A stretch of DNA of 64,000 nucleotides from the NCBI GenBank assembly GCA_023379265.1, contig JAMCUI010000009.1, positions 252,908-316,907 on the forward strand, read 5' to 3'. The stretch's first letter is position 1, and each line of letters begins with the position of its first letter. Below, in pieces: positions 5,810-37,815 of this stretch. Below the pieces are notes generated by a model that was not told where the DNA came from, made no database searches, and saw only the letters and a list, made by a program, of their open reading frames with translations. Origin of the DNA: Patescibacteria group bacterium. GTDB lineage: Bacteria; Patescibacteriota; Microgenomatia; 2-02-FULL-39-11. A program made the position numbers and the translations under genes.

Positions 5810-5824
5810 TATGAGAAGTTTAAT

Positions 5825-6748
5825 ATGAATAAAAAAATAAGCATTGTTATACCAAACTATAATGGCAGGAATTTGTTTATGAAAAACTTGCCTGAGGTTT
5901 TAAAAGCTGCGAGAGGTGCAGAGATTATAGTTGTGGATGATGCTTCAGAAGATGACAGCGTGGCAATGCTCCGAAAGAATTTTCCCCATATAAACGTTTT
6001 ACAAAGTGAAACCAATCGGGGATTTTCCACTGCGGTAAATAAGGGCGTGATGGCGGCAAAAGGAGAATTAGTGCTTCTTCTTAATAGCGATGTCTATCCA
6101 GAAACTGACTTTTTGGAATATCTTCTGCCCCATTTTGTCGATAATAAAGTTTTTGCAGTAGGATGCCTTCAGAAAAGCGAAGAAGAGAAAAACAGGACCG
6201 TACAGCGAGGCAGAGGTATTGGTGAATTTAAAAATGGATTTCTCATTCACTCAAAAGGAAAGCCCGATAAGAAAAATACTCTTTGGGTTTCAGGAGGAGC
6301 TGGGATTTTCAGAAAAGACTTGTGGAATGATCTGGGGGGGTTGCGGGAAATATATGACCCCTTTTATTGGGAGGATATAGACCTGTCTTACAGAGCGCTG
6401 AAAGCCGGATATAAAGTGGCATTTGAACCAAAAAGCACAGTTTGGCACAAACAAAGTACGGGGGCTATCCGAAACAAATATGACAGCAGTCGAATAAAGG
6501 CAATTTCATATAGGAATCAGATTCTTTTTGTCTGGATGAATATTACTGATTTTGGATTGCTGATTAATCATCTTTTATATTTGGTCTATATTACATCCAA
6601 ATCCATAATTAAGATTGATAAGTCTTTTATATCAGGGCTTTTACAGGCAATAGTAAGATTGCCCCAGGCGATGGTAGAGCGTTTCAAATTTAAGTCAATG
6701 ATTAAAATTAAAGACGAACAGATATTTCTCTTATTTAAGAAAGACTGA
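5825..6748 (+). CDS. Family 2 glycosyltransferase
   Basis: 'ISIVIPNYNGRNL', 'IIVVDDASEDDS', 'LLLNSDV' and 'FYWEDIDLSYRALKAGYKV' motifs. Confidence 0.75.
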   Translation: MNKKISIVIPNYNGRNLFMKNLPEVLKAARGAEIIVVDDASEDDSVAMLRKNFPHINVLQSETNRGFSTAVNKGVMAAKGELVLLLNSDVYPETDFLEYLLPHFVDNKVFAVGCLQKSEEEKNRTVQRGRGIGEFKNGFLIHSKGKPDKKNTLWVSGGAGIFRKDLWNDLGGLREIYDPFYWEDIDLSYRALKAGYKVAFEPKSTVWHKQSTGAIRNKYDSSRIKAISYRNQILFVWMNITDFGLLINHLLYLVYITSKSIIKIDKSFISGLLQAIVRLPQAMVERFKFKSMIKIKDEQIFLLFKKD

Positions 6749-6767
6749 GACGTAAGGCAAGCTGCTT

Positions 6768-6797
6768 TATTTGTTCAGCTTCATTTTGTGCTAAAAT
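6768..6797 (+). promoter_or_regulatory. Candidate promoter upstream of the GT-C array
   Basis: TTGTTC (6771-6776), a 15-nt spacer, then TAAAAT (6792-6797), inside the 82-nt gap before the ATG at 6831. The spacing is suboptimal. Confidence 0.25.
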
Positions 6798-6830
6798 ACT
6801 TGATATTTTGATTAGGTGTTTAGAGTAAAA

Positions 6831-8510
6831 ATGAGACGTCACATTTTTCTATTGGTATCGATTTTTATACTGGCATGTATTTTGCGGCTCTATCAGCTTG
6901 GCAAGACACCTATATCTCTAGAGTGGGATGAGGTAGCCATAGGCTATGACGCTTATTCAATACTGCATACGGGTCGGGATCAATTCGGCACGCTTTTGCC
7001 TTTGACATTCAGGTCTCTTGATGATTACAAGCCTCCAATTTATGAATATATTACAGTTCCTTCAGTGGCTATATTTGGACTAAACTCATTCGGAGTGAGA
7101 TTTCCCTCGGCATTTTTCGGGATACTGACAGTTATTGCCACCTATTTTCTGATCTTTACAATTATGTCGAAGGTGCCCAGGTTGGCAAAAGGAGCCTCAT
7201 ATATAGCTTTTCTTGCGGCATTTCTTCTTTCAGTGTCACCCTGGCATCTGCAGTTTTCCCGGGCGGCTTTTGAAGTAAATGTGTCCGTGTTTATTACAGT
7301 TGTGGCAGTGTATCTTTTTATTGCAGGTTTGGAAAAGTCGCGGCTTTTTGTACTGTCAGCTTTATTTTTCGGCCTTGATCTGTTTTCATATCACAGCACA
7401 AGAGTGGTTGCACCTCTTCTTCTGGTTTCACTTTTTCTTCTATTCAACCGATTGCTGCCGAAAAGAAAATATGTTGTCAGATTTAGTCTTATCTTTGCTG
7501 TATTTTTTGCCGGATTCATATCAATACTCCTTACGCCTGGGTCAGAGATTAGGTTTCAGGCAACAAACATATTCAACGCCGGCGCTAGGTATCTTAACGA
7601 GAAGGATCTTGAGAAAATATTTCTAGACCAGAGACTATTGGATGCGAAAGCGGGCTTTGCCCAGGCCGGAAAAATATTCCATAATCAGAGATTTATTTAT
7701 TCTGATTACGATACTTTGGTAAAAGCATTTAACCATTACCTGTCCAATTTCGGTTTTGAATTTCTGTTTATACGGGGTGATGCACCTTTGCACCATGCTC
7801 CTGGATTCGGACTCATATATGTTTGGGAGTTGCCATTTATACTATTGGGTATTTTGTATATTCTGAAAAACGGGTTAAACCGTTATTCTCTTATATTGCC
7901 CCTTTGGTTTCTTTTCGTGCCCATACCGGACGCCGTTACTCGTGAGGCTCCTCACGCGGTCAGGTCCGAGCTTTTTTTGCCTCTGTGGCAGACATTTGCC
8001 GCAATTGGATTATTTGTAGCCTTTGATTTTGTCAGGAAGGAGTCCCGCTGGGTGGTGGTATTTTCTGTGCTTTTTGCCTTGTCAACTTTTATGGTTGATA
8101 ACAGCTATTATCTGCACCAGTATTATGTGCATACCAATTACGAACTTTCAAAGAATTGGCTATACGGGAGAAAGCAGGCGGTGGAGTATACGGAGAACGT
8201 AAAAGGCAGTTATGATCACGTCTTGGTTTCTATGCATGTTGACATGCCATATATTTTCTGGCTTTTTTACTCCAAATACCCTCCGGCAAAATATCTGGCT
8301 GCGGGAGGTACGGTTTCCGGCGGTTTTGCTGATCAAAGAAATCATTTTGATAAGTATGAATTCAAAAATTTCAATTACAACAATCTGCCGACAAATGAAA
8401 CGTTGCTCTTGGTTGGTGTACCGGGAGATTTTCCGCCAGATGCAAGGATACTCAAAACCATAAGATATATTGACGGTACAAAGGCATTGGAAATAGTTGA
8501 GAATCGGTAG
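6831..8510 (+). CDS. GT-C fold glycosyltransferase, ArnT/PMT-like (GT39/GT83-type), array copy 1
   Basis: Polytopic membrane protein. First-loop 'SLEWDEVAIGYDAYSILHTGRDQFG', 'SVSPWHLQFSRAAFEVNV', 'APHAVRSELFLP', and C-terminal periplasmic domain 'GRKQAVEY...MPYIFWLFYSKYPPAKY'. The ATG at 6831 is preferred over the GTG at 6816. Confidence 0.7.
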   Translation: MRRHIFLLVSIFILACILRLYQLGKTPISLEWDEVAIGYDAYSILHTGRDQFGTLLPLTFRSLDDYKPPIYEYITVPSVAIFGLNSFGVRFPSAFFGILTVIATYFLIFTIMSKVPRLAKGASYIAFLAAFLLSVSPWHLQFSRAAFEVNVSVFITVVAVYLFIAGLEKSRLFVLSALFFGLDLFSYHSTRVVAPLLLVSLFLLFNRLLPKRKYVVRFSLIFAVFFAGFISILLTPGSEIRFQATNIFNAGARYLNEKDLEKIFLDQRLLDAKAGFAQAGKIFHNQRFIYSDYDTLVKAFNHYLSNFGFEFLFIRGDAPLHHAPGFGLIYVWELPFILLGILYILKNGLNRYSLILPLWFLFVPIPDAVTREAPHAVRSELFLPLWQTFAAIGLFVAFDFVRKESRWVVVFSVLFALSTFMVDNSYYLHQYYVHTNYELSKNWLYGRKQAVEYTENVKGSYDHVLVSMHVDMPYIFWLFYSKYPPAKYLAAGGTVSGGFADQRNHFDKYEFKNFNYNNLPTNETLLLVGVPGDFPPDARILKTIRYIDGTKALEIVENR

Positions 8511-8515
8511 ACAGT

Positions 8516-9385
8516 ATGAAAAAGATTTTTTTTCTGGTGCTGATTTTACTTAACACAGTTTTCTTGAGGATATATAAGATCGGGTTGGTTCCACCCCTAA
8601 AGTCACAAGCGGATTTGGATTTACGCTATTTATCTTCAATACTTGGGATACTTTCAGTTTTTTTAATATATTTTTATGTCAAAAAGATATTTCAAGAAAA
8701 CGTAAGGATGGGACTTTTGGGTGCCTGGGTATTCAGTTTGCTGCCTTGGACAATAGAACAAAACCGTATTATTTCCCAGCCGACGTATGCACTTTTCATA
8801 TTAATTATTGCTCTGTTAATTTCGTTGGTAAACAAAAATAAAATAATAAAATATGGAGTTTTTTTTGTTTTTGCCCTAATATTGTATTTTGTCTATCCCC
8901 AGTTCTGGCTTTTCAGACATTTTGCTCATCTTCCGGGGATAAAGGATGTTGCGGATAATGTTTTTATATTGGTTTCGCCTGATCTCCTTTTTTTCAAAAA
9001 TATTACTTTCTGGTGGGGCGGGGTAAGAGACTACGGAATTTTGCTTTTGGGTTTTTTGCCGTTTCTTCTTGTAGGATTTTACCGGGTTGTAGTTTCCCAA
9101 AAAAAGGAAATCCTTCTACCCTTTTTTTTGCTTCTAATGATTTCTGCTTTGAGCCCCTTTTTTCCTGAAAGCCGGGAATATTACCTTACATTACCTTTTA
9201 TTACGGTATTTATATCTGTAGGAATCTGGAATATTTTCCGTAATAAATATTTTTTAAGTAATGTTTTATCGGTTTTTCTTTTTCTTTTTTTAATATATGA
9301 TTTTGCCGGATTTCTTCATTTTTACCAAATACATTACCCGCAATTTATTATAGGTAACCTACACAATATACATGTACCATATTAA
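8516..9385 (+). CDS. Degenerate/truncated paralog of the GT-C array (possible gene remnant or non-catalytic subunit)
   Basis: 289 aa, hydrophobic. The N-terminus aligns with array paralogs ('FLRIYKIGLVPPLKSQADLDLRY' against 'VLRVWNTNYAPPGLNRDEAAIGY'), but the DE pair is replaced and the ~50-aa 'NAYSIL-TGKDEYG' loop is missing. 'SLLPWTIEQNRI' corresponds to the 'ISPWHI-FSR' motif. The conserved C-terminal domain is absent. Confidence 0.45.
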   Translation: MKKIFFLVLILLNTVFLRIYKIGLVPPLKSQADLDLRYLSSILGILSVFLIYFYVKKIFQENVRMGLLGAWVFSLLPWTIEQNRIISQPTYALFILIIALLISLVNKNKIIKYGVFFVFALILYFVYPQFWLFRHFAHLPGIKDVADNVFILVSPDLLFFKNITFWWGGVRDYGILLLGFLPFLLVGFYRVVVSQKKEILLPFFLLLMISALSPFFPESREYYLTLPFITVFISVGIWNIFRNKYFLSNVLSVFLFLFLIYDFAGFLHFYQIHYPQFIIGNLHNIHVPY

Positions 9386-11030
9386 ATTAAAAGCAGGAAT
9401 ATTACTTCTTGCAATCATAATTTTTTCCGCAGTTTTGCGTATTGTCTGGCTTGGTAACTTTCCTGCTTCTTTATATACGGATGAAGCTGACCAAGGATAT
9501 AATGCATATTCTATACTTTTGACGGGAAGAGACGAACATGGTGTATTTCTACCAGTATCGATGAGATCTTTTGGAGATTGGAAGCCGCCCCTACCGACCT
9601 ACCTTATGATTCCATTTATATATTTCTCAGACTTAAATAGTGTCGCCATCAGGATGCCTTCTGCTCTCTCGGGTGTAGGGACTATTGTTCTTACTTATTT
9701 ACTGGTTGTTGAACTTTTCTCCCGCCAAAAATATAAGACAAAAATTGCTCTTTTATCCGCATTTTTTTTATCAATCTCACCTTGGCATATTTTGCAAAGC
9801 CGATCGGCGATGCTTGTTGTCATAAGCCTTTTTTTTCTTGAAGCGGGAGTACTTTTTTTCCTTTGGTATAGGAAAAAGGCTTCAATGTTAATTTTTTCGG
9901 CTATCTTTTTTTCCTTATCAATTTACGCATATTACGGAATGCGTGTAATTACGCCTCTCGTAATCTTGCTTATGTATTTAAGAGAGAGGAAGAATATTGT
10001 TTTGCTATCTAAAGAGGTGATAGTCGGATTTCTGGCGGGAATAATCATTCTTATTCCTCTTTTTGCCGGCATTGTCAAAAATAAGGATGTTCTTTTGGGT
10101 CGCGCGCAGACCGTCAGTGTTTTTTACGACCAAGGTGTAAAACTTTTGCAGTGGGAATATATAGCCCAGGACGGGGTGAAGCAAGTTTCACCTACCATTA
10201 CAAGGTTATTTCATAACAACGTTACTATGTATGTACAGAATATAATCAGACGGTATCTTTCACATTTTGACGGTGATTACCTTTTCTTCACTGGTGACAA
10301 AGCAGAGCCTTTTGAAATACCCAATATGGGAATTTTATATATTCCCGACGGAATATTTATTCTGGCAGGAATAATATTATTGATAAAACGAGGATATAAA
10401 GGTATAGACTTACTGTTGGGATTTTTACTTATATCGTTCATACCTGCTGCATTTACATTTATGACTCCGTCAACTAATCGGACATTCAATGCCGTTGTGC
10501 CTTTGGTTATATTTTCGTCTGGGTGCGCTGTATATTTATCAAGCCTGATGAATAAAAGTATAATACCGGGTCTCGCAATAAGTTTGGTTTATACGGTTTT
10601 ATTTGCATATTTTATGCAGCAGTATTTTCTTGTCCTGCCCAAAAAACATTCCGATTGGTGGAATTGGGGTTGGAAGCAAGTGGTGAATTATGTCAGCGGA
10701 GTGGATAGTAGATACAATAATGTGATCGTTGCTGATGTGAATGGCATGCCGTATATATATTTTCTTTTCTATACTAAATATAATCCCGCGCTTTATCAAA
10801 AGCAAGCAGTAAGGCCATATGTGCCGGATCGATTTGGTTTCGAACATGTCGAAGGGTTCGGGAAATTCTGGTTCCCTAAAAATTTTGAATGGAAGTATGT
10901 AAAAAATGATCTGCAAAAGGATACTTTATACGTTGTGCCGGCAGATCAGGCTCCCGGGAATGACGGCTATATCAAAGAAATAGACAATCCTGCCGGTAAA
11001 CCGTTATTTAAAATTTTCAGCAGTTTATAA
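9372..11030 (+). CDS. GT-C fold glycosyltransferase, ArnT/PMT-like, array copy 2
   Basis: 'YTDEADQGYNAYSILLTGRDEHG', 'SISPWHILQSRSAM', and C-terminal 'GWKQVVNYV...MPYIYFLFYTKYNPALYQK'. Confidence 0.7.
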   Translation: MYHIKLKAGILLLAIIIFSAVLRIVWLGNFPASLYTDEADQGYNAYSILLTGRDEHGVFLPVSMRSFGDWKPPLPTYLMIPFIYFSDLNSVAIRMPSALSGVGTIVLTYLLVVELFSRQKYKTKIALLSAFFLSISPWHILQSRSAMLVVISLFFLEAGVLFFLWYRKKASMLIFSAIFFSLSIYAYYGMRVITPLVILLMYLRERKNIVLLSKEVIVGFLAGIIILIPLFAGIVKNKDVLLGRAQTVSVFYDQGVKLLQWEYIAQDGVKQVSPTITRLFHNNVTMYVQNIIRRYLSHFDGDYLFFTGDKAEPFEIPNMGILYIPDGIFILAGIILLIKRGYKGIDLLLGFLLISFIPAAFTFMTPSTNRTFNAVVPLVIFSSGCAVYLSSLMNKSIIPGLAISLVYTVLFAYFMQQYFLVLPKKHSDWWNWGWKQVVNYVSGVDSRYNNVIVADVNGMPYIYFLFYTKYNPALYQKQAVRPYVPDRFGFEHVEGFGKFWFPKNFEWKYVKNDLQKDTLYVVPADQAPGNDGYIKEIDNPAGKPLFKIFSSL

Positions 11031-12790
11031 TGAAAAGGAAATATCTTCTTATATTTCTTATCCTTATTTTGGGGTTTGTGCTCAGGGTGTGGAATACAAA
11101 TTATGCTCCTCCTGGTTTAAATCGTGATGAAGCCGCGATAGGTTACAATGCTTATTCAATACTGAGAACGGGAAAGGATGAATACGGGAAGTTTCTTCCT
11201 TTATCGTTCAAGTCTTTTGGTGACTGGAAGTTGCCATTCTATATTTATTTGGATGTTATTCCAGTAAAACTTTTTTCGCTGACGCCTTTTTCAGTCCGCC
11301 TTCCTTCTATATTTTTAGGCACTGCTACAATCCTGACTGTATATTTTTTGGTTAAGGAACTCTTAAGAAATAAAAGAAAATCAGATATTATTGCACTTTT
11401 GTCAGCATTTTTTATATCAATTTCTCCCTGGCATATACATTTTTCCCGGGTTGCCGCAGAAGCAAACGTAGCCGTATTTTTTGTCGTTTTGGGGTTGTAT
11501 TTCTTTATAAAAGGAATTAAAACACCAATTTACCTTTTATACTCGTCAACGAGTTTTGGTCTAAGCATGTATACTTATCACGGCAATCATGTATTTACTC
11601 CTCTTCTACTTTTGGCTCTTTTTGTTTATATCCTAAAATCCCATAGAGGGTTAAAAACTGTTTTCATGTTTATTTTGCCCGTATTTTTGTTGGGTTCAGT
11701 TGTATTTGCTAATACACTTTTGGGAGCGGACAGGACAAAAATTTCCGGCTTGACGCCCCTGTCGGATGTATCACTGGTATACCAGAAAGTAGCGTTACCG
11801 AGATTTGACCATACAAATCCGTATTCCAAACTGACTCTTGCCTACCATAATAAAATAACTTTTCTGATTGGAAGGTTTCTACAAGGGTATTATATGGGTT
11901 TTTCACCAGAATTTCTGTTCATAAAGGGAGGAAATAACCTGCAGCACAATATACCGGATTTCGGTAACCTTTATATGTGGGATGCGCCATTTTTTCTTTT
12001 GGGATTATTTTATATTTTAAGGGATAGATTGAGATGGCGCTATATATTGCTATTTTGGTTGCTGATTTCTCCGGTTGCAGCAGCCATTACTAAGGATGCA
12101 CCGCATTCAGCCAGGATGATTGCCTTTTTACCGTTACCGTATATTTTATCGGCAGTAGGATTTCTAGTATTGTCTAAGAGTATCAGGAAACGGGTATTAC
12201 AAGATATATTTTTGTTTGGGTCAGGAGTACTTCTCATCATCAATTTTACTTTTTACCTTGATCGGTATTTTATTCATTTCCCAAAATTATTGGAAGCACA
12301 GTGGGGAGGAGGGTACAAACAATTGGTTGAGGATGTAGATAGTTTATCTCCCAGATATAAGAATATAGTTATTGATAATCCTGACAATTCACCTTATATT
12401 TATTTTCTTTTTTATAAAAGAACTGACCCGAAACTATATCAGAAAAATGTCGTAAGATACCCTACAGATATAGAAGGATTCCAAAATGTCAAAAGTTTCG
12501 GAGGTATCACTTATAAGAAAATAGATTGGGCTGATGATTTGGTTATCCCCAACAGATTATTAATTTCCTGGGTTGATTCAACCCCGGCAGGTGCAACAGG
12601 AAGTGCTGTTCTTGTGACAAATAAACTTCTTTCACATGTTGAAGAAAAGTTCGGCGGCAGAAATTTTAATCTGGCAGTGGGGGATAAGGTGACAAGTAAA
12701 ATTCTCAAAACGATCAGACTTAAAAATGGAATTTCCCAGTTTTATATATTAGATATTGAGCGAACACCGGCTGCATTAATAAATAAATAA
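11030..12790 (+). CDS. GT-C fold glycosyltransferase, ArnT/PMT-like, array copy 3
   Basis: 'NRDEAAIGYNAYSILRTGKDEYG', 'SISPWHIHFSRVAAEANV', 'DAPHSARMIAFLP' and 'SPYIYFLFYKRTDPKLYQKN'. TAATG overlap with copy 2. Confidence 0.7.
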   Translation: MKRKYLLIFLILILGFVLRVWNTNYAPPGLNRDEAAIGYNAYSILRTGKDEYGKFLPLSFKSFGDWKLPFYIYLDVIPVKLFSLTPFSVRLPSIFLGTATILTVYFLVKELLRNKRKSDIIALLSAFFISISPWHIHFSRVAAEANVAVFFVVLGLYFFIKGIKTPIYLLYSSTSFGLSMYTYHGNHVFTPLLLLALFVYILKSHRGLKTVFMFILPVFLLGSVVFANTLLGADRTKISGLTPLSDVSLVYQKVALPRFDHTNPYSKLTLAYHNKITFLIGRFLQGYYMGFSPEFLFIKGGNNLQHNIPDFGNLYMWDAPFFLLGLFYILRDRLRWRYILLFWLLISPVAAAITKDAPHSARMIAFLPLPYILSAVGFLVLSKSIRKRVLQDIFLFGSGVLLIINFTFYLDRYFIHFPKLLEAQWGGGYKQLVEDVDSLSPRYKNIVIDNPDNSPYIYFLFYKRTDPKLYQKNVVRYPTDIEGFQNVKSFGGITYKKIDWADDLVIPNRLLISWVDSTPAGATGSAVLVTNKLLSHVEEKFGGRNFNLAVGDKVTSKILKTIRLKNGISQFYILDIERTPAALINK

Positions 12791-12794
12791 TATA

Positions 12795-14423
12795 ATGAAT
12801 AAGAAAAAAGTTTTATTTGTTCTGATACTTATCTTATCTGTCTTTCTTAGGTTCTATAAGATCTCGACAGTTCCCACGGGATTATACAGTGATGAAGCGG
12901 CGTATGGTTATAATGCCTATTCCATCCTGCTGACGGGTAAGGATGAATATGGTACCCATTTTCCTTTGGCATTCAAGTCCTTTGGTGACTACAAGACTCC
13001 TCTTTATATATATTTTATGGTTCCGTTTGTAAGAGTATTTGGACTGACTATAGAAGCAGTCAGATATTCCTCAGTATTTTTGGGTTTGGCTCTTATCGTT
13101 ATTGTTTATCTTCTCTCAGGCCGTATGTTCCAGAGATCCTCGGTTTCTCTTCTGAGTGCTTTTTTTGTTTCGGTATTTCCCTTCGGTCTACAATTCAACC
13201 GTATGGCGCATGAGAATAATTTGTCAGTCGTGCTTCTTTCTCTTGGGGTTTTGCTATTTTTATATTCTTTCGAGTACAAAAAGCTGATAATACTATCTTT
13301 TATTGCATTTGCCATGTCTATGTATGCGTATCATGACACCCGTGTTATTGTTCCGTGCCTTCTTGCAAGCCTTCTTATTATATTCAGAAGTCAGTTATAT
13401 GATATGAAAAAACAGATTGGAGTAGCAGTAGTTTCCGGCATAATCTTGTTGCTTCCGTTTGTGGATATTGTGAGATCTCCCGATTTCTGGTCAAGGCCTA
13501 GTTTCACCGCAGTTACAACAGACGCGGGTATAAGGAATGAAATTAATCAGGAAAGAGGCGAAGATAAACTATACGGCTTTTTACTTCCAGCCTTCTTTCA
13601 CAATAAACCTTTGTCATACGCATTTACTTTCTTAGATAATTATTTCAAACATTTTTCAGCAGATTTTTTCTTTTTCAGAGGGGATACTGTAACAATATAC
13701 AGAACTTTAGGAAACGGCGTGCTTTATATAGCAGTCCTGCCATTTCTTGTTTTCGGAGCATATTTTCTTGTAAGAAAGAAAAGTGTCTATAATCAGGTAA
13801 TTATTGCCTGGATGATAATTTCTCCGATTCCGGCAGCACTAACCAGATTTGTCCCATCAGCAAGCAGAACATTATCTCTATTACCTATTCTAAGTATCAT
13901 TGTTGCAATAGGAATTGTTTCACTAATTGATAACAAAAAATATTCAAATATTAATCGAGTAATTTATTTACTCATAACAGTGGTTATATCATTTAATGTG
14001 GCGTATTATTTACATATGTACTATTTCAACTCTCCTGTCAGATATGCAAAGGATTGGCATTTCGGGATGCAAACGGTTATAAATGAGGTTGTTAACCTTC
14101 AGTCTAAATATAAACAGGTTTGGTTTAGTCGTAATGCATGGGGATATATTTATCCGCTTTTCTATATGAAATACCCGCCAAGCGAATATCAAAAAGAAGC
14201 AAAATTAAGCAATCTGAACGAATACGGATTTGGCTGGGTTGACGGATTTGGCAAATACAAATTCGGGGATTTCCCTCCAAAATTTGAAAACATGAGAGAT
14301 ACGCTATTTGTTGGAACGCCAAATGACTTTCCTAAGTTAAATAATGCAATATATACAGAATATTATCCTGATAAAAGTAAAGCTTTTATATTGGCTGATT
14401 ACGATTCTCTTCACACAAAATGA
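12795..14423 (+). CDS. GT-C fold glycosyltransferase, ArnT/PMT-like, array copy 4
   Basis: 'YSDEAAYGYNAYSILLTGKDEYG', 'YHDTRVIVP' and 'GYIYPLFYMKYPPSEYQKE'. The 'SPWH' motif has diverged to 'FPFGLQFNR'. Confidence 0.65.
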   Translation: MNKKKVLFVLILILSVFLRFYKISTVPTGLYSDEAAYGYNAYSILLTGKDEYGTHFPLAFKSFGDYKTPLYIYFMVPFVRVFGLTIEAVRYSSVFLGLALIVIVYLLSGRMFQRSSVSLLSAFFVSVFPFGLQFNRMAHENNLSVVLLSLGVLLFLYSFEYKKLIILSFIAFAMSMYAYHDTRVIVPCLLASLLIIFRSQLYDMKKQIGVAVVSGIILLLPFVDIVRSPDFWSRPSFTAVTTDAGIRNEINQERGEDKLYGFLLPAFFHNKPLSYAFTFLDNYFKHFSADFFFFRGDTVTIYRTLGNGVLYIAVLPFLVFGAYFLVRKKSVYNQVIIAWMIISPIPAALTRFVPSASRTLSLLPILSIIVAIGIVSLIDNKKYSNINRVIYLLITVVISFNVAYYLHMYYFNSPVRYAKDWHFGMQTVINEVVNLQSKYKQVWFSRNAWGYIYPLFYMKYPPSEYQKEAKLSNLNEYGFGWVDGFGKYKFGDFPPKFENMRDTLFVGTPNDFPKLNNAIYTEYYPDKSKAFILADYDSLHTK

Positions 14424-16084
14424 AGATAAATTTTTTGATTGTTTTGATACTGATATTAAGCATTTTTCTGCGTTTTTGGCATCTTAATGAGTTCCCTGCA
14501 ACACTTTATGGAGATGAACAAGCTTTTGCCTGGAATGCTTACAATATCCTTTTGACCGGCAAGGATGAGTATGGGAAGCCCTTTCCTCTAGAATTCAGGT
14601 CGTTTGACGACTACAAAGCTCCAATCCCAGTATATATACTTGTGCCATTTTTCAAGGTGATGGGGATGAATATGTTTTCCATAAGGCTTCCAGTAGCAAT
14701 TTCTTCCGTAATAACGGTTTATGCAGTATATCTTCTTTCAGGATTATTTTTCAGGAAGAAAGCTTCGCTAATAATTACTTTTCTTATGGCAATTTCTCCA
14801 TGGCATATACATCTGTCCAGGGGTTATTTTGAGGCAACGATGAGTCTGTTGTTTTTTATACTGGGTATTTATTTCTATTTTGCCAGTAAGAATAGGTTGA
14901 AGATTATGTTTTTTGGGATATTTTTTTTCGCCCTATCGCTTTACACGTATTTCACCCCAAGAATTCTTGTACCCATTTTTCTTCTGTTTCTTTTTATTTA
15001 CAGCTATAAATATCGAGACCGGTTAGTAACAGCTAAAGAAATGTTGAAGAAGTTTACAGTCAGTTTCATATTTTTTATCATACTTATTTCTCCCCTTATT
15101 AAAGTAACATTTTTCGGAGAAGGATTATCACGTTTCAACAAACTTACTGGTTCGCTAGAATTAGAAGCAGTCCAAACTGTTGTTAAAGAAAGAAACACTT
15201 CAAATTTATCAGCCAGATGGAAACCTTTGTTTCATAATAGATATTTAGCAACGGTAAGATTGGTTGCCGATAATTATCTAGAGCTTTTGTCTCCAAACTT
15301 CTGGTACATTTATGGAGACAGTTCCTTGCGGTATTTTACCGGCAATATGGGTATGTTCTACCTTCTGGAGTTTCCGTTTTTTATTGTCGGAGCATATCTG
15401 CTGTTTGTTAAAAAAAGAAAAGTCGCCTTATTTTTCTTTGTGTGGATCCTCTTGGCGCCTATTCCAGCAGCTTTAGTAGGAAAACCATATGCAGTGCGGA
15501 CTCTGGCAATCCTTCCGGCGCCATTTATTTTTGTCGGATATGGAATATATAAAAGCTTTGATATGGTAAAGTATATGTTTGGCAGACGTATTCTTACAGT
15601 ATCATTGGTTTTACTTTTTACCCTCTCTCTTTTTACACTTCTAATAAGGTATTACATGGAATATCCGGTTTATGCTGCAACTTGGTGGGGGTGGGAAAAT
15701 AAAGCGGCTATAGATTATGCAATGGCACGGTCGACAAAATATAAGGATATATTCATTTCAAATTTTTACAGCGGCGCTACATTGGCTTTTGCCGTCTATA
15801 ATCATTATGATCCAATACAATACAGATATGCCATAAATCATCCTGTCACTATGGCTGACGGAAGACATCTTGTAAAACTGGGAAAGTATTATTTTGGTTC
15901 CTTGGATCTTAATAAAAATAGGTTAGAAGAGAAGATAATTCCTACCGACAGCCTTTATATAGGACGTCCCGAAGAACCAAGGGGAGAAGACCAAATAGTT
16001 GCTCCTGACGACGGAAGGCTAATTTTTGTCGTGCATGATACATTGCGTAAAAAATGTTATATTTATGCGAAAATTCCCTGCTGA
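14420..16084 (+). CDS. GT-C fold glycosyltransferase, ArnT/PMT-like, array copy 5
   Basis: 'YGDEQAFAWNAYNILLTGKDEYG', 'AISPWHIHLSRGYFEA' and 'KPYAVRTLAILP'. ATGA overlap with copy 4. Confidence 0.7.
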   Translation: MKINFLIVLILILSIFLRFWHLNEFPATLYGDEQAFAWNAYNILLTGKDEYGKPFPLEFRSFDDYKAPIPVYILVPFFKVMGMNMFSIRLPVAISSVITVYAVYLLSGLFFRKKASLIITFLMAISPWHIHLSRGYFEATMSLLFFILGIYFYFASKNRLKIMFFGIFFFALSLYTYFTPRILVPIFLLFLFIYSYKYRDRLVTAKEMLKKFTVSFIFFIILISPLIKVTFFGEGLSRFNKLTGSLELEAVQTVVKERNTSNLSARWKPLFHNRYLATVRLVADNYLELLSPNFWYIYGDSSLRYFTGNMGMFYLLEFPFFIVGAYLLFVKKRKVALFFFVWILLAPIPAALVGKPYAVRTLAILPAPFIFVGYGIYKSFDMVKYMFGRRILTVSLVLLFTLSLFTLLIRYYMEYPVYAATWWGWENKAAIDYAMARSTKYKDIFISNFYSGATLAFAVYNHYDPIQYRYAINHPVTMADGRHLVKLGKYYFGSLDLNKNRLEEKIIPTDSLYIGRPEEPRGEDQIVAPDDGRLIFVVHDTLRKKCYIYAKIPC

Positions 16085-16086
16085 AC

Positions 16087-17706
16087 ATGATTAAAAAAAA
16101 TATTGCAATTATATTTATAATTCTGTTATTGTCCGCAATGCTCAGGTTGTACAGGATAAACATAAATCCGCCATCACTTTCATGGGATGAAGCTTCACTC
16201 GGGTATAATGCATTTCTTATTGGGTCATCTCTTCATGATGAGCATGGGGAATACATTCCTTTGGCACGTTTTATTGCCTTTGGAGATTATAAACCTCCAG
16301 GATATATATATGCGGACGTTCTGCCCGTCCGTCTTTTAGGGCTGAATGAGTTTTCCGTCAGATTTCCGTCTGCTGTTTCCGGAATATTGATGGTTTTAGT
16401 GACATATCTTTTAGTAAAGGAATTATTCGGAAGCAAGAGAATCGCTCTACTAGCGTCTTTATTTATTGGTATCTCGCCATGGTCACTGCAACTTTCGCGG
16501 GCGGCATACGAGGCAAATATGGCGGCCTTTTTGAATTTGTCGGGAGTTTATTTTTTCCTCCTGTCACGGAAGAGGAAATGGTTTTTAGCTCTATCGGTAG
16601 TGTTATTCATTGCTTCATTTTATACTTTCAATGCCAACAGGATAATCGCACCGTTTCTTCTATTATTCCTATCAGTCTATTTTTGGAGGGATATGCTTTC
16701 AAATAAGAAGTGGGTCATTATTTCAGTGCTTATGGGTATGGTGTTAGTTTCTCCTAGCATACAGTATCTCTTAAGCCGTGAAAGCAAGCTTCGTTTGCAA
16801 GAAGTATCCATTTTCAATAATCTTGCTCCCTTAAAACAATCAAATGAAATGATAGCATATGATAAAGGAGCTTGGTGGGCAAAAATAATTCATAACAGAA
16901 GAGTGCTTTATGGAATGGATTTCCTGAAGCACTATTTTGACAATTTTACCGGTAGGTTTCTCTTTGTCGAAGGCGATGCAAATCCCAGGTTGTCAGTGCA
17001 AAACATGGGGGAACTTTATGTTTTTGATCTATTTTTTCTCATTGCTGGGGGATTCTGGTTATTTAAAAAGAAAAAAGATGTCTTCTGGCCTCTTATTTTT
17101 TGGATGATTATAGTACCAATTCCTTCAGCCTTGGCAAAGGAAACTCCACATGCTTTGAGGATTGTATCAATACTGCCAGTATACCAGATTATTATCGCCT
17201 ATGGGGTCTATATGACTTTTAATAAATTAAAAGTAAGATTACCTTTCAATATATTTCAAACCGCATTGGTTATGATTGTATTAGTTCTTACTGCCTGCGT
17301 CTATTATTATTTGCACAATTATTATATTCATTATCCAATTGACTGGAGTGGTGAATGGCAATACGGGTATAAACAGATGGTTTCCTATGTGACGCCGCTT
17401 GAAAGCAAGTATGACCATATTTTTGTGACAGAGTCTTATGGTAGGCCCTATATATATTTTGCTTTTTACAACAGGTATACGGAGGGTAAACTTCTTAAAA
17501 TAAAGAAAGGTTCCAGGGACTGGTTTGGTTTTTGGCACGTATCGGATCTGGGTAAGATACATTTCGGTTTTGACAATCTGCAAAAATCCAAAGGGAAAAT
17601 ACTGATTGTGACAACATCCGGTAATATGCCCGGAGGTTATAAAGAGATAAAGGAAATACCAAATCTTAAGGGCGACACTGTATTTATCATCGGAAAGAAA
17701 TTATGA
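16087..17706 (+). CDS. GT-C fold glycosyltransferase, ArnT/PMT-like, array copy 6
   Basis: 'SWDEASLGYNAFLIG', 'GISPWSLQLSRAAYEANM', 'ETPHALRIVSILP' and 'GYKQMVSYV...RPYIYFAFYNRY'. I chose the ATG at 16087 (MIKKNIAIIF), right after the upstream stop. Confidence 0.7.
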   Translation: MIKKNIAIIFIILLLSAMLRLYRININPPSLSWDEASLGYNAFLIGSSLHDEHGEYIPLARFIAFGDYKPPGYIYADVLPVRLLGLNEFSVRFPSAVSGILMVLVTYLLVKELFGSKRIALLASLFIGISPWSLQLSRAAYEANMAAFLNLSGVYFFLLSRKRKWFLALSVVLFIASFYTFNANRIIAPFLLLFLSVYFWRDMLSNKKWVIISVLMGMVLVSPSIQYLLSRESKLRLQEVSIFNNLAPLKQSNEMIAYDKGAWWAKIIHNRRVLYGMDFLKHYFDNFTGRFLFVEGDANPRLSVQNMGELYVFDLFFLIAGGFWLFKKKKDVFWPLIFWMIIVPIPSALAKETPHALRIVSILPVYQIIIAYGVYMTFNKLKVRLPFNIFQTALVMIVLVLTACVYYYLHNYYIHYPIDWSGEWQYGYKQMVSYVTPLESKYDHIFVTESYGRPYIYFAFYNRYTEGKLLKIKKGSRDWFGFWHVSDLGKIHFGFDNLQKSKGKILIVTTSGNMPGGYKEIKEIPNLKGDTVFIIGKKL

Positions 17707-19316
17707 AATATAAAATAGCCCTGATTTCAATTATTGCTCTTGCCTTTTTTCTCAGATTTTGGCAGTTGGGAGCCAATCCTGCGTCTTTGGATTGGGACGA
17801 GGCTTCATTGGGATACAATGCCTATTCGATATTGAAAACAGGACGTGATGAATATGGTAGGTTTTTGCCTTTATCGATAAAATCATTCGGAGATTATAAG
17901 CCGCCATTATATTCTTATTTGACTATAATTCCTGTGGCAATCCTTGGGCTGACTGAATTTTCGACACGGTTTACATCGGCATTCTTCGGATTCTTAGCTG
18001 TTATTGTAGCGTATTTCCTTATAAAGGAGCTTTTTCCAAAAAGAAGTCGCCGGTTTTATCTTTTTTTCACTTTTCTTTTCTCTATTTCTCCCTGGCAGAT
18101 ACAGTTTTCCCGCGTGGCTTTTGAAGCAAACCTAGGCCTTTTCTTTTTCATGGGAGGAGTATTATTTTTCCTCAAAGGCTTAAGAAAGAAATTGTGGTAT
18201 CTTTTTTCTGCATTTTTCTTTGCTTTATCAATTTATGCCTATCACAGCCCTAGGCTCATAAGCCCACTGATGCTTTTGGGACTTTTGTTTATTTTTAGAA
18301 AGTACGTTGTAAAAAATCTAAAATGGCTTGTGGTAAGTATTGTCGTTTTGGGTTTTCTTGTGGCGCCGGTTTATATAGAAATGAGAACTACAGGCGCAAG
18401 ACTTGGTTCGGTCACAATAATGAATGATCAGGAGAGGTTGGGTAACAGTATCGGCAAAATAGAATTTGATCGCGGGAGAAGTGATCTTTTGGGTGTTTTG
18501 ACACACAACAGACGTGTAGTATACGGATTTGATATTCTAGCTGGATATCTTGACCACTTTAACTTTGATTTTCTTTTCCTCTATGGTGATGCGCCTGGCC
18601 GCCACCATGCCCTGAATATGGGAATGCTTTATCTCTGGACTCTGCCGTTTATACTTTTTGGATTTTATTACATGTTAAACCATAGGGATGAAAGAGCATG
18701 CGTTATATTTCTGTGGTTTCTTCTGGCACCTGCCGCAGCCTCAATAACAACTGGTACTCCTCATGCGGTGCGCTCATTGGAGTTTATCCCTACTTACCAG
18801 ATTTTTACAGCTGTTGGATTTTTTGAACTTCTATATATTCTGAGGGAGAAAATAAGACCGGAATTTTATAAGTCTTTTGTATCCTTGGCTGTATTTCTAC
18901 TACTAGTAAACTTTTTTTATTATATGCAAATGTATTGGGTTCATACGCCGGTTATGGATTCCCAATCCTGGCAGTATGGATATAAACAGGCTGTTACTGT
19001 CGTAGATAAATATGCATCAAATTACAAAAGAATAATTGTAACTTATAGGTATGACCAGCCGTATGTATTTTTCCTTTTTTACAATAAAACTGATCCTGTT
19101 TGGTACCAAAAAAACTGGGGAAGTGGACAGATTCAGCGGGCAAACAGGTCGTTTGGCAAATATGAGTTTCGCAATATCGATTGGGCAATAGATTCAAAGT
19201 TGAGTGACACACTTCTAGTGGGTACTCCTGATGAAATTCCGCCCGGCGCAGGCAAGCTTCTATCTGAGATTCATTTTTTGGATGGCAGTGTTGCCTTCAG
19301 GATAGTGGGAAGGTAA
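17703..19316 (+). CDS. GT-C fold glycosyltransferase, ArnT/PMT-like, array copy 7
   Basis: 'DWDEASLGYNAYSILKTGRDEYG', 'SISPWQIQFSRVAFEANL', 'GTPHAVRSLEFIP' and 'GYKQAVTVV...QPYVFFLFYNKTDPVWYQKN'. ATGA overlap with copy 6. Confidence 0.7.
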   Translation: MKYKIALISIIALAFFLRFWQLGANPASLDWDEASLGYNAYSILKTGRDEYGRFLPLSIKSFGDYKPPLYSYLTIIPVAILGLTEFSTRFTSAFFGFLAVIVAYFLIKELFPKRSRRFYLFFTFLFSISPWQIQFSRVAFEANLGLFFFMGGVLFFLKGLRKKLWYLFSAFFFALSIYAYHSPRLISPLMLLGLLFIFRKYVVKNLKWLVVSIVVLGFLVAPVYIEMRTTGARLGSVTIMNDQERLGNSIGKIEFDRGRSDLLGVLTHNRRVVYGFDILAGYLDHFNFDFLFLYGDAPGRHHALNMGMLYLWTLPFILFGFYYMLNHRDERACVIFLWFLLAPAAASITTGTPHAVRSLEFIPTYQIFTAVGFFELLYILREKIRPEFYKSFVSLAVFLLLVNFFYYMQMYWVHTPVMDSQSWQYGYKQAVTVVDKYASNYKRIIVTYRYDQPYVFFLFYNKTDPVWYQKNWGSGQIQRANRSFGKYEFRNIDWAIDSKLSDTLLVGTPDEIPPGAGKLLSEIHFLDGSVAFRIVGR

Positions 19317-19317
19317 A

Positions 19318-19350
19318 CCCATCTTACTTTTCGTAGAAATGTTAGATGGG
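19318..19350 (+). terminator. Stem-loop immediately after the GT-C array stop (candidate terminator, no U-tract)
   Basis: CCCATCT (19318-19324) pairs with AGATGGG (19344-19350). An inner TTTTC/GAAA stem flanks a GTA loop. It lies 2 nt after the TAA of ORF 17703-19316. Confidence 0.3.
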
Positions 19351-19369
19351 TATATACTGAGTAACCAAG

Positions 19370-19407: not shown

Positions 19408-20337
19408 ATGAAAATCTTAGTTACTGGCGGAGCAGGATTTATTGCGTCACATATAGTTGATGCTTTTATAGCCAAAGGGTATGAAGTCTGTGTGGTTGAT
19501 AATTTATCCACAGGGCATAGGGACTTTGTAAATAAGAATGCGGTATTTTATGAGGCTGATATAAGAGACAGGAAAGCAATCGAAAAGATTTTTCAGAGAG
19601 AGAAACCAGATATTATAGATCATCATGCGGCACAAATAAGCGTACGTAATTCTGTTGATGATCCTATAAATGATGCGCAGGTAAATCTTCTTGGGCTCTT
19701 AAATCTTTTGGAGACAGGTAGAAAAACAGGTATAAAAAAAGTGATATTTGCTTCATCTGGCGGGGTCGTCTATGGCGAAGCAAAAAAGGTGCCAACGCCT
19801 GAAAGTTATAAACCGTTGCAGCCGTTGTCGCCGTATGGAGTCTCCAAATTGGCTTCCGAGTATTATCTCCATTTTTATCATAAGACCTACGGTATACCAT
19901 TTGTGGCCTTAAGATATTCCAATGTTTATGGACCCAGACAAAATCCGCATGGGGAAGCTGGAGTTGTTGCTATATTCAGTCTCAAGCTATTGTATGGGCA
20001 GGTACCTGTTATAAACGGCGATGGCAGGCAAACTAGGGATTATGTGTATGTAGCTGATGTGGTAAAGGCAAATGTTTTGGCTGCAAAAAAGTCTGTCGTT
20101 GGAGCTTTTAATATCGGGACGGGCAAAGAGACAGATGTGGTGAAAATTTATGAGAAAATCAGAAAATCTACCGATAGTCAGATAGTCGCAAAACACGGCC
20201 CAGCCAAGGATGGGGAGCAGAAGAGGAGTTGTTTAGATGCCTCAATGGCGGATGAAAAATTGGGTTGGGAACCGCAGGTAGATTTATCCAAAGGATTGGA
20301 CTTAACAGTGGCATATTTCAAAAATCTCAGACAATAA
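19408..20337 (+). CDS. NAD-dependent sugar-nucleotide 4-epimerase (UDP-glucose 4-epimerase GalE-like, short form)
   Basis: '[18 protein letters not shown]' Rossmann motif, 'YGVSKLASEYY' (YxxxK) and 'NVYGPRQNP'. The 'SSGGVVYG' pattern fits an epimerase rather than a 4,6-dehydratase. Confidence 0.7.
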   Translation: MKILVTGGAGFIASHIVDAFIAKGYEVCVVDNLSTGHRDFVNKNAVFYEADIRDRKAIEKIFQREKPDIIDHHAAQISVRNSVDDPINDAQVNLLGLLNLLETGRKTGIKKVIFASSGGVVYGEAKKVPTPESYKPLQPLSPYGVSKLASEYYLHFYHKTYGIPFVALRYSNVYGPRQNPHGEAGVVAIFSLKLLYGQVPVINGDGRQTRDYVYVADVVKANVLAAKKSVVGAFNIGTGKETDVVKIYEKIRKSTDSQIVAKHGPAKDGEQKRSCLDASMADEKLGWEPQVDLSKGLDLTVAYFKNLRQ

Positions 20338-20349
20338 AATTATTCTGCA

Positions 20350-21816: not shown

Positions 21817-21822
21817 ACATAT

Positions 21823-27434: not shown

Positions 27435-28115
27435 ATGAGACTTTTGATAGGGATACCTGCCTATAATGAAGAAAAAATGATTGGGGTTGTTATTTCATCT
27501 TTGCCTAAAAGACTTACGGGAGTTGATAAGGTTGATATAGTGGTGGTTGACGATGGGTCTGAAGATAGAACTGGAGAAATTGCCCAATCTAAAAGGGTTA
27601 CAGTTCTGCGTCATATCATAAACAGAGGATTGGGTGGAGCGTTAAAAACTATATTTGCATTTGCATTAGAGAGAAATTATGATATTTTAGTGACTTTTGA
27701 CGCTGATGGACAACATGAGTCAAAATATATATCTGATGTTATTAAACCTATTCTTTCACAAAAATCAGATGTGGTTATAGGTACCAGATGGAAAAGTAAG
27801 GCACATGTACCCTTTTCCCGAAGATTGATAAACCAATTAGCAAACGTAATAACTTTTATTCTTTACCATGTTTGGACTTCTGATTCTCAATCGGGATTTC
27901 GGGCATTTAATAAAAACTCAATAAACAAAATTAAATTGCAGACTGACGGAATGGAAGTTTCTAGTGAATTTTTTAAGGAGATAAAAAGTAATAATCTGAG
28001 ATTTTCTGAAATATCCATAATTCCTGTTTATTCTGATTATTCATTAGAGAAAGGCCAAAGATTGAGTAATGCTCCTTCAGTAATGATAAATTTACTTTTG
28101 AGGCTATTAAGATAG
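27435..28115 (+). CDS. Polyprenyl-phosphate glycosyltransferase, GT2 Dpm1/GtrB-like (soluble form)
   Basis: 'LLIGIPAYNEEKMI', 'VVVDDGSEDRT', 'FDADGQHE' and 'GTRWKSKAHVPFSRRLINQLANVI...SGFRAF'. Confidence 0.65.
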   Translation: MRLLIGIPAYNEEKMIGVVISSLPKRLTGVDKVDIVVVDDGSEDRTGEIAQSKRVTVLRHIINRGLGGALKTIFAFALERNYDILVTFDADGQHESKYISDVIKPILSQKSDVVIGTRWKSKAHVPFSRRLINQLANVITFILYHVWTSDSQSGFRAFNKNSINKIKLQTDGMEVSSEFFKEIKSNNLRFSEISIIPVYSDYSLEKGQRLSNAPSVMINLLLRLLR

Positions 28116-28119
28116 ATCT

Positions 28120-31222: not shown

Positions 31223-31231
31223 CTTTCCCCT

Positions 31232-31259: not shown

Positions 31260-31278
31260 TACGTTATTCCATTTGCAT

Positions 31279-37809: not shown

Positions 37810-37815
37810 ATCTAA

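Follow-up and report, generated by a model that had tools for sequence, protein, structure and literature searches.

RgtA and RgtB of Rhizobium are encoded by tandem genes and draw on a dodecaprenyl-phosphate-GalA donor, and ArnT (GT83; PDB 5ezm/5f15) is the undecaprenyl-phosphate-L-Ara4N:lipid A transferase. CPR bacteria (Patescibacteria), a large part of bacterial diversity, combine tiny genomes with a life attached to other cells; their surface chemistry is barely known, and their envelope is of a Gram-positive type that is not known to contain LPS or a lipid A acceptor. The two Rhizobium enzymes are ArnT-family paralogues that put GalA on different positions of one acceptor (PMC4402001), and more generally a GT2 lipid-sugar synthase, a flippase and a GT-C enzyme form a three- or four-component scheme (PMC9574508). 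We analysed a 64-kb stretch of CPR DNA (hereafter the window) in which positions 6831–19316 of the (+) strand hold seven ORFs of 537–586 aa and one of 289 aa. The ORF list and alignments bear out the original prediction of a tandem array of eight paralogues: all eight proteins are mutually homologous, with pairwise identities of 27–40%, far above chance and close to the 30–40% previously judged by eye. The literature searched on CPR, Gottesmanbacteria and Microgenomates contained no relevant description of such arrays. The array and the hairpin that follows it comprise these features:

6831–8510, + strand: W1, GT-C (PMT_2) paralogue, 559 aa; PF13231 35.2 bits, DE motif present
8516–9385, + strand: Wx, short GT-C-derived membrane protein, 289 aa; PF13231 20 bits, below the gathering score
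9372–11030, + strand: W2, GT-C paralogue, 552 aa; PF02366 (PMT) 33.8 bits, own orthogroup
11030–12790, + strand: W3, GT-C paralogue, 586 aa; PF13231 33.7 bits, own orthogroup
12795–14423, + strand: W4, GT-C paralogue, 542 aa; PF13231 38.6 bits, own orthogroup
14420–16084, + strand: W5, GT-C paralogue, 554 aa; PF13231 41.4 bits, own orthogroup
16087–17706, + strand: W6, GT-C paralogue, 539 aa; PF02366 47.3 bits, PF13231 46.3 bits, own orthogroup
17703–19316, + strand: W7, GT-C paralogue, 537 aa; structure modelled with AF2
18951–19313, + strand: region encoding the C-terminal alpha/beta domain of W7
19317–19351, + strand: hairpin after W7, without a U-tract; found by folding, not reported as a terminator by the terminator scan

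From their coordinates, the junctions are, in order, a 5-nt gap, a 14-nt overlap, a 1-nt TAATG overlap, a 4-nt gap, ATGA, a 2-nt gap and ATGA. The earlier description of ATGA/TAATG overlaps or spacings of at most 5 nt holds for six of these, and missed the 14-nt overlap between Wx and W2. This spacing suggests that the array may be a single transcription unit; promoter-like and terminator-like matches within it occurred at background frequency only. The stem-loop previously placed at 19318–19350 exists, with a 91-nt stretch of the region folding at −23.9 kcal/mol (z = −4.1), and the absence of a U-tract rules it out as a canonical intrinsic terminator. Alternative starts are present for two genes, a GTG at 6816 for W1 and an upstream ATG at 16054 for W6, the latter of which would give a 31-nt overlap with W5. 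The gene call for the related locus L001 starts the W6 counterpart so as to yield 539 aa.

Seven of the eight array proteins exceeded the gathering threshold for Pfam PMT_2 or PMT, W1 and W3–W7 through PF13231 (32.6–46.3 bits, threshold 26.1) and W2 through PF02366 (threshold 22.7), as the GT-C call had anticipated for an HMM search. The array proteins are polytopic membrane proteins with a GT-C fold. When the W7 model (pLDDT 91.7, pTM 0.91, with confidence lowest at residues ~230–260) was compared with the PDB by Foldseek, the best 44 matches were all GT-C and no transporter was among the significant matches, which speaks against the transporter alternative to that call. The fold match of W7 to ArnT was strong, yet no better than that to STT3, ALG12 or PMT. 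In profile searches against the PDB, ArnT was the sole GT-C match (E 0.025–0.09), besides one or two chance matches, and E. coli ArnT reached Prob 12% in hhalign. Because these sequence-only links to solved structures are marginal, the GT-C assignment rests on Pfam and fold, and homology does not reveal the donor or the acceptor. Scores against Agl23 (TIGR03663) were 30–42 bits, below the NCBIfam cut-off of 126. The superfamily is a known one, and its members in the array already carry the annotation 'GT39 family'.

Residues D32, E33, D49, D64, K66, R137, H268, N269 and R357 (W7 numbering) are invariant across the seven long copies and 60 homologues. D32-E33 is the GT-C acidic motif of the first extracytoplasmic loop, found in all seven long copies and not in Wx; as expected from a comparison with validated ArnT, it lines up with E. 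coli ArnT D31-E32, and D-Y-K-P-P with ArnT F-E-K-P, in local alignments that are collinear and statistically weak. The other motifs first quoted for the family also appear in the alignments, with variation towards the C-terminus in W4 and W5: an ISPWHIxFSR-like segment is seen in the long copies (SPWH is changed to FPFG in W4), and most copies carry GYKQ and PYIYFLFY, replaced by GMQT/GYIYPLFY in W4 and by WENK/GATLAFAVY in W5, the most divergent copy (27–31% identity to the others), whose C-terminal motifs are degenerate. The C-terminal domain proved to be shorter than the proposed 150 aa, at ~120 aa (121–168), with a ~45 aa insertion in W3; it is a small alpha/beta fold without similarity to carbohydrate-binding modules, for which a search had been proposed. 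Among the paralogues the first loop is the best-conserved region (60% mean pairwise identity) and residues 201–260 the least conserved (15–18%), as would suit enzymes with a common chemistry whose acceptor recognition has diverged.

The short copy, first taken for a degenerate one, instead represents a distinct conserved family. Wx aligns with the long family over three deletions that include the catalytic loop (hhalign Prob 99.7, E 6e-27). Missing from it are the first extracytoplasmic loop, with DE, D49, D64 and K66, a segment in the middle and the C-terminal domain, and because of these losses it is predicted to be non-catalytic. Short homologues of 259–321 aa formed 43 clusters, and the Wx family as a whole comprises 95 clusters of constant length, ~290 aa (50% identity clustering, E<=1e-30), with invariant motifs NITFWWGGVREFG and SPFFPESREFY. 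Its dN/dS of 0.156 indicates purifying selection. Its position is conserved as well: of the seven loci with a Wx gene, all have the W2 orthologue immediately behind it, and six have a W1 orthologue immediately before it. Having retained the membrane core, Wx is probably an accessory or scaffold subunit of an adjacent enzyme. A further candidate relative elsewhere in the window, the 580-aa ORF at 31192–32934, was rejected as a ninth family member (hhalign Prob 2%, Pfam match absent).

Related loci were identified by a genome scan with the 60-sequence alignment as query. The array copies have one-to-one orthologues, in conserved order, in other Gottesmanbacteria, and the long copies fall into seven orthogroups whose members are only 44–59% identical across species (W1, for example, has orthologues in loci L002, L007, L010 and L083), in line with the old duplications proposed from the sequence; the neighbour-joining tree carries no bootstrap support values. 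All eight genes have dN/dS of 0.08–0.16 (W1, 0.08 against the close relative L087; W2, 0.08). Against L087, dS is uneven, at 0.2 in the flank and 1.2–1.3 in W2 and W3, and array composition differs somewhat between genomes, as L002 and L008 show with extra or missing members and gene insertions. Arrays of two to seven full-size copies are common in Microgenomates. Eight genes in a row, described at first as unusual, are so by comparison with model bacteria, whereas Microgenomates as a rule have such arrays. The present one has been inherited, as a trait of the bacterial group and not a one-off.

Candidate genes for the supply of sugar donors lie downstream of the array:

19408–20337, + strand: UDP-glucose 4-epimerase (GalE-like); full-length match to PDB 4zrm, E 1.2e-95
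20350–21816, + strand: UDP-galactopyranose mutase (UGM)-like flavoenzyme; T. cruzi UGM 4dsg, residues 6–451, E 2e-22
21823–22593, + strand: GT2 with a Dol-P-Man-synthase (DPMS)-like catalytic domain; sole PDB sequence match DPMS 5mlz, E 1.3e-6
27435–28485, + strand: DPMS-like GT2 (27435–28115; DPMS 5mlz, E 4.6e-15) and DUF2304 membrane protein (28120–28485; PF10066, 72 bits)
36042–36977, − strand: GtrB orthologue (polyisoprenyl-phosphate hexosyltransferase); Synechocystis GtrB 5ekp, full length, E 1.3e-70

The GalE-like protein has homologues in 28 of 81 related loci; in L002 and L087 the gene comes directly after the W7 orthologue. In 11 loci of the Gottesmanbacteria type the UGM-like gene is found a short way downstream of the W7 orthologue. 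The GT2 at 21823–22593, 74–76% identical in related loci, is a candidate lipid-sugar synthase. The pair at 27435–28485 is a candidate two-part polyprenyl-phosphate-sugar synthase, which we take to be comparable to GacI/GacJ. The GtrB orthologue also matches ArnC (E 1e-28), has a hydrophobic C-terminus with membrane helices, and provides the nearby GT2 polyprenyl-phosphate-sugar synthase gene that is characteristic of three-component systems. No GtrA- or Wzx-type flippase was matched by Pfam in any ORF >=150 aa of the 64-kb window; the flippase may be encoded elsewhere, like CflA in Lactococcus lactis (PMC9574508). The GT2 directly upstream of the array (5825–6748) was rejected as a lipid-sugar synthase: it has no membrane segment, its best PDB matches are to chondroitin synthase and soluble GT2s of the GalT1 type, its identity to ArnC is just 26% over the N-terminal half, and it looks like an ordinary soluble GT2. 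The remainder of the window is devoted to glycan biosynthesis, including many GT2/GT4 genes, nucleotide-sugar enzymes, YfhO-type GT-Cs and a Wzm/Wzt ABC exporter, a potential source of acceptor polymer; in all, the 64 kb of this ~1-Mb genome hold, besides the array, at least three more proteins of GT-C type and over 20 other glycosyltransferase genes.

Given that lipid-sugar synthases share the island and that genes for UDP-galactofuranose lie directly downstream, we favour a function in envelope-glycan synthesis. Taken together, we consider it fairly likely that the array comprises seven active enzymes and a non-catalytic relative, all from one GT-C (PMT_2-type) subfamily, and that it acts in this Gottesmanbacteria-like CPR bacterium as a set of extracytoplasmic, polyprenyl-phosphate-sugar-dependent transferases on envelope glycans, which probably build or decorate a cell-surface sugar coat. 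Each active enzyme would have ~11 membrane helices; its conserved first extracytoplasmic loop would hold the catalytic Asp-Glu pair together with a phosphate-binding-like motif, D-x-K-P-P, and a variable long loop (residues ~200–270) and the small C-terminal alpha/beta domain would be exposed to the outside. The polyprenyl-monophosphate-sugar donor would be made on the cytoplasmic face by the GtrB-like or DPMS-like GT2 enzymes of the island and flipped across the membrane, where the GT-C enzyme would take the sugar from it and pass it to an envelope glycoconjugate outside the membrane. By analogy with described enzyme series, the seven copies most likely differ in linkage or acceptor site on one surface glycan.

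A more specific version, which we judge quite unlikely, would make the array extracytoplasmic galactofuranosyltransferases that use polyprenyl-phosphate-galactofuranose, with Wx as an obligatory non-catalytic subunit in a heteromeric complex with W1 and/or W2. The conserved genes directly downstream would then act in turn, GalE converting UDP-Glc to UDP-Galp, UGM converting this to UDP-Galf and the DPMS-like GT2 following, and a branched galactofuranan would result on the surface of the CPR cell. Mycobacterial arabinan, built from decaprenyl-phosphate-arabinofuranose, offers the analogy; we know of no lipid-linked Galf donor described so far. That the seven enzymes are instead bacterial PMT-like protein O-glycosyltransferases, each modifying Ser/Thr of different surface or secreted proteins (S-layer proteins or pilins, for example) and not a polysaccharide or lipid-linked glycan, is possible, if on the whole unlikely. 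The fold does not discriminate, as the matches to ArnT, STT3 and ALG12 are of the same or better quality. Pfam found no MIR domain, a feature of eukaryotic PMTs, in the array proteins; since bacterial PMTs are likewise not known to carry MIR, the acceptor may still be a protein. The genomic context, with its ABC exporter, many GT2/GT4 genes and nucleotide-sugar enzymes, is of the polysaccharide type, and seven conserved paralogues would, by analogy, better suit stepwise glycan assembly.

The uneven dS against L087 could reflect recombination at a surface-antigen locus, and this, with the variable composition of the array in L002 and L008, would be expected if the copies were interchangeable surface-variation cassettes, used according to condition to evade phages or hosts and not jointly, comparable to the Gtr clusters responsible for serotype conversion in Shigella and Salmonella. 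One-to-one orthogroups that keep their order across species at 44–59% identity, uniformly low dN/dS in all copies and tight junctions of the translational-coupling type, which argue for stable joint use, make this very unlikely. We give almost no credence to a redundant or decaying duplication without specific biology, in which the short ORF would be a pseudogene fragment: that ORF lacks catalytic residues and falls under the Pfam threshold, and W4 and W5 carry degraded forms of some family motifs, but the eight ORFs are intact under dN/dS of 0.08–0.16, every copy has orthologues in many species, and the short family, with invariant motifs of its own, comprises 95 clusters of constant length.

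For a ~1-Mb genome, seven individually conserved GT-C paralogues and a non-catalytic relative, together with the other GT-C-type and glycosyltransferase genes of the window, mean that a great deal is invested in assembling glycans outside the cytoplasm. The locus offers CPR-envelope biochemistry seven enzyme orthogroups, a candidate accessory subunit and candidate donors, and Wx may be a natural case of a catalytically dead GT-C kept as a partner protein. The advance lies in organisation and evolution and not in a new enzyme class. ArnT, to which the sequence similarity of the array is marginal (E 0.025), is one gene against seven paralogues, and the ORFs of the window yielded no ArnA formyltransferase/decarboxylase, no ArnD deformylase and no protein of the ArnE/F type. 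RgtA/RgtB act on the LPS core of a Gram-negative bacterium, number two or three genes against seven, and lack a non-catalytic paralogue. With the three-/four-component Gram-positive systems (a GtrB/CsdA/GacI-type GT2, a flippase and a GT-C such as CsdB, GacL or YfhO; PMC9574508), the island shares a GtrB orthologue, a DPMS-like GT2 with a DUF2304 partner, polytopic GT-Cs and an ABC-exported polymer; those systems have one GT2 per GT-C, whereas here seven tandem GT-Cs stand with a non-catalytic paralogue and a flippase gene was not found in the window. Protein O-mannosyltransferases (PMT, GT39) have Pfam PMT/PMT_2, the DE motif and the fold in common with the array, and differ in the MIR domain, absent from the array proteins, and in the polysaccharide-like gene context of the array; eukaryotic PMTs are dimers of paralogues (Pmt1-Pmt2, PDB 6p25/6p2r), a precedent for paralogue complexes. 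Mycobacterial EmbA/B/C and AftA-D and eukaryotic ALG3/9/12 belong to Pfam families other than those of the array, and Emb and AftD bear large carbohydrate-binding C-terminal domains in place of the small 120-aa alpha/beta fold. It is the Emb/Aft or ALG3/9/12 series to which we liken the array, in which each copy would, by this analogy, most likely serve a separate linkage or acceptor site.

Eight + strand ORFs stand in a row from 6816/6831 to 19316 in the ORF list, which bears out the predicted eight-gene tandem array. Seven encode long paralogues of 537–586 aa (W1 to W7), and the second gene encodes a short member, Wx:

6831-8510, + strand: W1 (alternative start 6816)
8516-9385, + strand: Wx (289 aa)
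9372-11030, + strand: W2
11030-12790, + strand: W3
12795-14423, + strand: W4
14420-16084, + strand: W5
16087-17706, + strand: W6
17703-19316, + strand: W7

The junctions are, in array order, a 5-nt gap, a 14-nt overlap, a 1-nt overlap, a 4-nt gap, ATGA, a 2-nt gap and ATGA; the earlier description of them as overlaps or at most 5 nt fits most, but one is a 14-nt overlap. W6 also has an in-frame ATG upstream at 16054, which would give a 31-nt overlap with W5; the start at 16087 is preferred by gene callers and by the lengths of the orthologues. The spacer 5′ of the array is 67–82 nt, depending on the W1 start, and the 3′ spacer is 91 nt. The stem-loop noted after the array is a real hairpin (19317-19351, folding z = −4.1), but it has no U-tract and the terminator scan gives no call there. 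We infer that the eight genes are co-transcribed.

We found 27–40% pairwise identity among W1 to W7 (MAFFT alignments and BLASTP; about 30–40% was first estimated by eye), and the motifs originally quoted were present in the MAFFT alignments, with SPWH altered in W4 and the C-terminal motifs degraded in W5. In Pfam, six long copies match PMT_2 (PF13231) at 32.6–46.3 bits (threshold 26.1) and W2 matches PMT (PF02366) at 33.8 bits (threshold 22.7); Wx scores 20 bits, under threshold, and NCBIfam returned Agl23 matches only, all sub-threshold. An AlphaFold2 model of W7, built from a 60-sequence alignment, had a pLDDT of 91.7 and a pTM of 0.91. Its top 44 PDB matches in Foldseek were all members of the GT-C superfamily of integral-membrane glycosyltransferases, including AglB/STT3/PglB, ArnT (TM 0.55/0.55), Pmt4, ALG9, AftA, Emb and DPY19, and no transporter in the PDB matched significantly, transporters appearing at non-significant E-values only. 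By sequence, the proteins match solved structures only marginally (ArnT, E 0.025–0.09). Local alignments place the putative catalytic Asp-Glu (DE) pair of W1, W5 and W7 on D31-E32 (QPDETRYAEI) of the validated E. coli ArnT, and in the alignable part of this marginal similarity the family's D64-Y-K66-P-P falls on ArnT F-E-K-P. Across the seven copies and 60 homologues, D32, E33, D49, D64, K66, R137, H268, N269 and R357 (W7 numbering) are invariant. The GT-C reading thus withstood both tests proposed with it, HMM placement against other classes such as transporters and comparison of the DE motif with validated ArnT, because of the Pfam matches, the fold, and the alignment and conservation of the pair: the long copies are GT-C enzymes, and the DE pair in their first loop is conserved. 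The predicted fold is assigned at the GT-C level only, without discrimination among ArnT, PMT, STT3 and ALG12. Modelled alone, the C-terminal domain (W7 residues 417–537) is a small alpha/beta domain (pLDDT 91.7) of about 120 aa rather than the 150 aa or so first proposed.

Profile-profile comparison relates Wx to the long family (Prob 99.7%, E 6e-27) and shows where Wx is shorter. In three deletions it lacks the entire first extracytoplasmic loop, and with it DE, D49, D64 and K66; a segment in the middle of the protein; and the C-terminal domain. Homologues of Wx form 43 clusters of 259–321 aa at 31–80% identity. When 1.84 billion representatives were searched with a profile, 95 clusters scored E<=1e-30. 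Almost all of these are 260–305 aa long and matched end to end, and a score gap separates them from full-length GT-Cs, whose matches are in broken stretches only. Two near-invariant motifs, NITFWWGGVREFG and SPFFPESREFY, are peculiar to the Wx family; dN/dS is 0.156 against the related locus L087; and at each of the seven loci where Wx was seen it sits directly 5′ of the W2 orthologue, at six of them also directly 3′ of a W1 orthologue. This length-constant family, with its own motifs, its dN/dS and its fixed position, contradicts the original prediction that the short copy is degenerate. Currently labelled 'hypothetical protein', Wx is best described, judging by its sequence, as a conserved GT-C-derived membrane protein, presumptively without catalytic activity. 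By analogy with Pmt1-Pmt2 paralogue complexes, it might serve as an accessory subunit.

The window matches a metagenomic contig identically, and the long proteins are in NCBI, from a Patescibacteria MAG, as 'glycosyltransferase family 39 protein'. Homologues of W7 number more than 3600, the closest (50–63% identity) being from Candidatus Gottesmanbacteria. Gene order in related loci agrees with that of the window, both within the array and in the genes that follow it, and one-to-one orthologues are 44–59% identical in BLASTP, against 27–40% between paralogues. Sixty-five family members, drawn from the window and 11 related genomes, fell into seven orthogroups in a neighbour-joining tree computed without bootstrap values, with one window copy in each. 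Scanning a single genome for each species confirmed at least 596 relatives, and the labels of the best 80 loci are all Microgenomates-type CPR, or generic or doubtful. Many species-representative MAG records with typical Microgenomates loci (L007, L011, L013, L016 and others) bear the title 'uncultured Gammaproteobacteria bacterium' (TPA assemblies) and one 'Limnocylindrales'; on such contigs these titles look wrong. By HMM count within 10 kb on each side at 81 loci, the median was three full-size copies, with at least five at 16 loci and at least six at eight; L014 has an eight-gene layout identical to the window's. Because of the orthogroups, the synteny and the copy counts, we conclude that the duplications are old, as originally proposed, and that the clade has inherited the array as a trait. 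Eight in a row, first judged unusual, is indeed the upper end of the range, but of a common multi-copy pattern. Some related genomes have unrelated large membrane-protein genes inside the array (L002 3401-8409; L004/L008 6447-8396); the interrupting genes are an opposite-strand PTPS_related protein and ORFs of 520, 560 and 649 aa without a Pfam match. The array slot tolerates inserted genes, which may be GT-C-like.

The whole 64-kb window consists of glycan biosynthesis genes: about a dozen GT2s, several GT4s, one GT10-like enzyme, two YfhO-type proteins (one over and one under the Pfam cut-off), one PIG-V-type GT-C, epimerases/dehydratases, an aminotransferase, a NeuB-like synthase, methyl- and carbamoyl-transferases, and a Wzm/Wzt ABC exporter.

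3497-5809, co-directional gene run: YfhO (90 bits)
19408-22593, directly 3′ of the array: GalE (E 1e-95), UDP-galactopyranose mutase (E 2e-22, full length, eukaryote-type) and a DPMS-like GT2, in that order
22580-24232, co-directional gene run: weak YfhO-like membrane protein
26203-27399, co-directional gene run: PIG-V-like mannosyltransferase
27435-28115: DPMS-like protein, then a DUF2304 membrane protein
32956-46497, − strand: DegT aminotransferase, GtrB orthologue, NeuB-family synthase with SAF domain, TPP-dependent enzyme, FkbM-type and other methyltransferases, SDR and GFO/IDH oxidoreductases, 4,6-dehydratase-like protein, nucleotidyltransferase
36042-36977, − strand: the GtrB orthologue (full length, E 1.3e-70 to 5ekp; C-terminal membrane helices)
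46678-63367: carbamoyltransferase, GT4s, asparagine synthase-like amidotransferase, Wzm/Wzt ABC exporter with a sub-threshold Wzt_C domain match, GT10 fucosyltransferase-like protein, FkbM methyltransferase, further GT2/GT4 genes

The YfhO, YfhO-like and PIG-V-like proteins of the co-directional run are three further membrane proteins of GT-C type. Among 81 Microgenomates loci, 58–63 have homologues of the YfhO-like protein and of the GT2 encoded at 24229-25032. The only PDB relative of the GT2 third after the array is Dol-P-Man synthase, and at 11 Gottesmanbacteria-type loci the mutase occurs close by, 3′ of the W7 orthologue. GalE, mutase and GT2 behind the array point to galactofuranose in a surface glycan; more speculatively, they possibly supply a lipid-linked Galf donor. 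We found no GtrA- or Wzx-type flippase among the ORFs of at least 150 aa in the 64-kb window. The ORF at 31192-32934 encodes 580 aa with about 9–11 hydrophobic segments and no Pfam match. It scores a Prob of 2% against the array family in hhalign, its positional counterpart in L002 has a weak PMT_2 match, and it may be another divergent GT-C. The divergently oriented block at 32956-46497 is one for modified or nonulosonic sugars. The third block, 46678-63367, is an ABC-transporter-dependent polysaccharide pathway, from which the acceptor polymer could come.

The evidence best supports a battery of GT-C transferases that would depend on polyprenyl-phosphate-sugars and act outside the cytoplasm on an envelope glycoconjugate, each transferase serving one linkage or acceptor site. 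Among the paralogues, conservation is highest in the first loop (60% mean pairwise identity) and lowest over residues 201–260 (15–18%), which fits common donor chemistry with divergent acceptor recognition; the W7 model is also at its least confident at residues 230–260 or so. The acceptor, glycan or protein, and the sugar are our inference, and we consider protein O-glycosylation by these enzymes possible, at roughly one chance in four. Against L087, a close relative (80–91% protein identity), dN/dS is 0.08–0.16 for all eight genes, and we hold an array in decay to be very improbable. In the same comparison dS is 0.20 for the flanking GT2 (5825-6748) and 0.34 for YfhO (3497-5809), 0.50 for W7, about 0.85 for W1, Wx and W4 to W6, and 1.2–1.3 for W2 and W3. 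This unevenness over 3497-19316 suggests recombination or allele replacement at the array centre; that the copies are alternative surface-variation cassettes seems to us doubtful.

The superfamily of the array enzymes is a known one, and the enzymes already carry a generic annotation; to our knowledge, no member of their subfamily has been characterised, and no description of such arrays was found in the literature searched. What is new is the seven anciently fixed orthogroups, with order conserved across Gottesmanbacteria; a widespread, selected short paralogue without the catalytic loop as an array member; and the synteny with UDP-Galf synthesis genes. As a battery of envelope transferases, the array would follow the three- and four-component logic of the extracytoplasmic glycosylation systems reviewed in PMC9574508.
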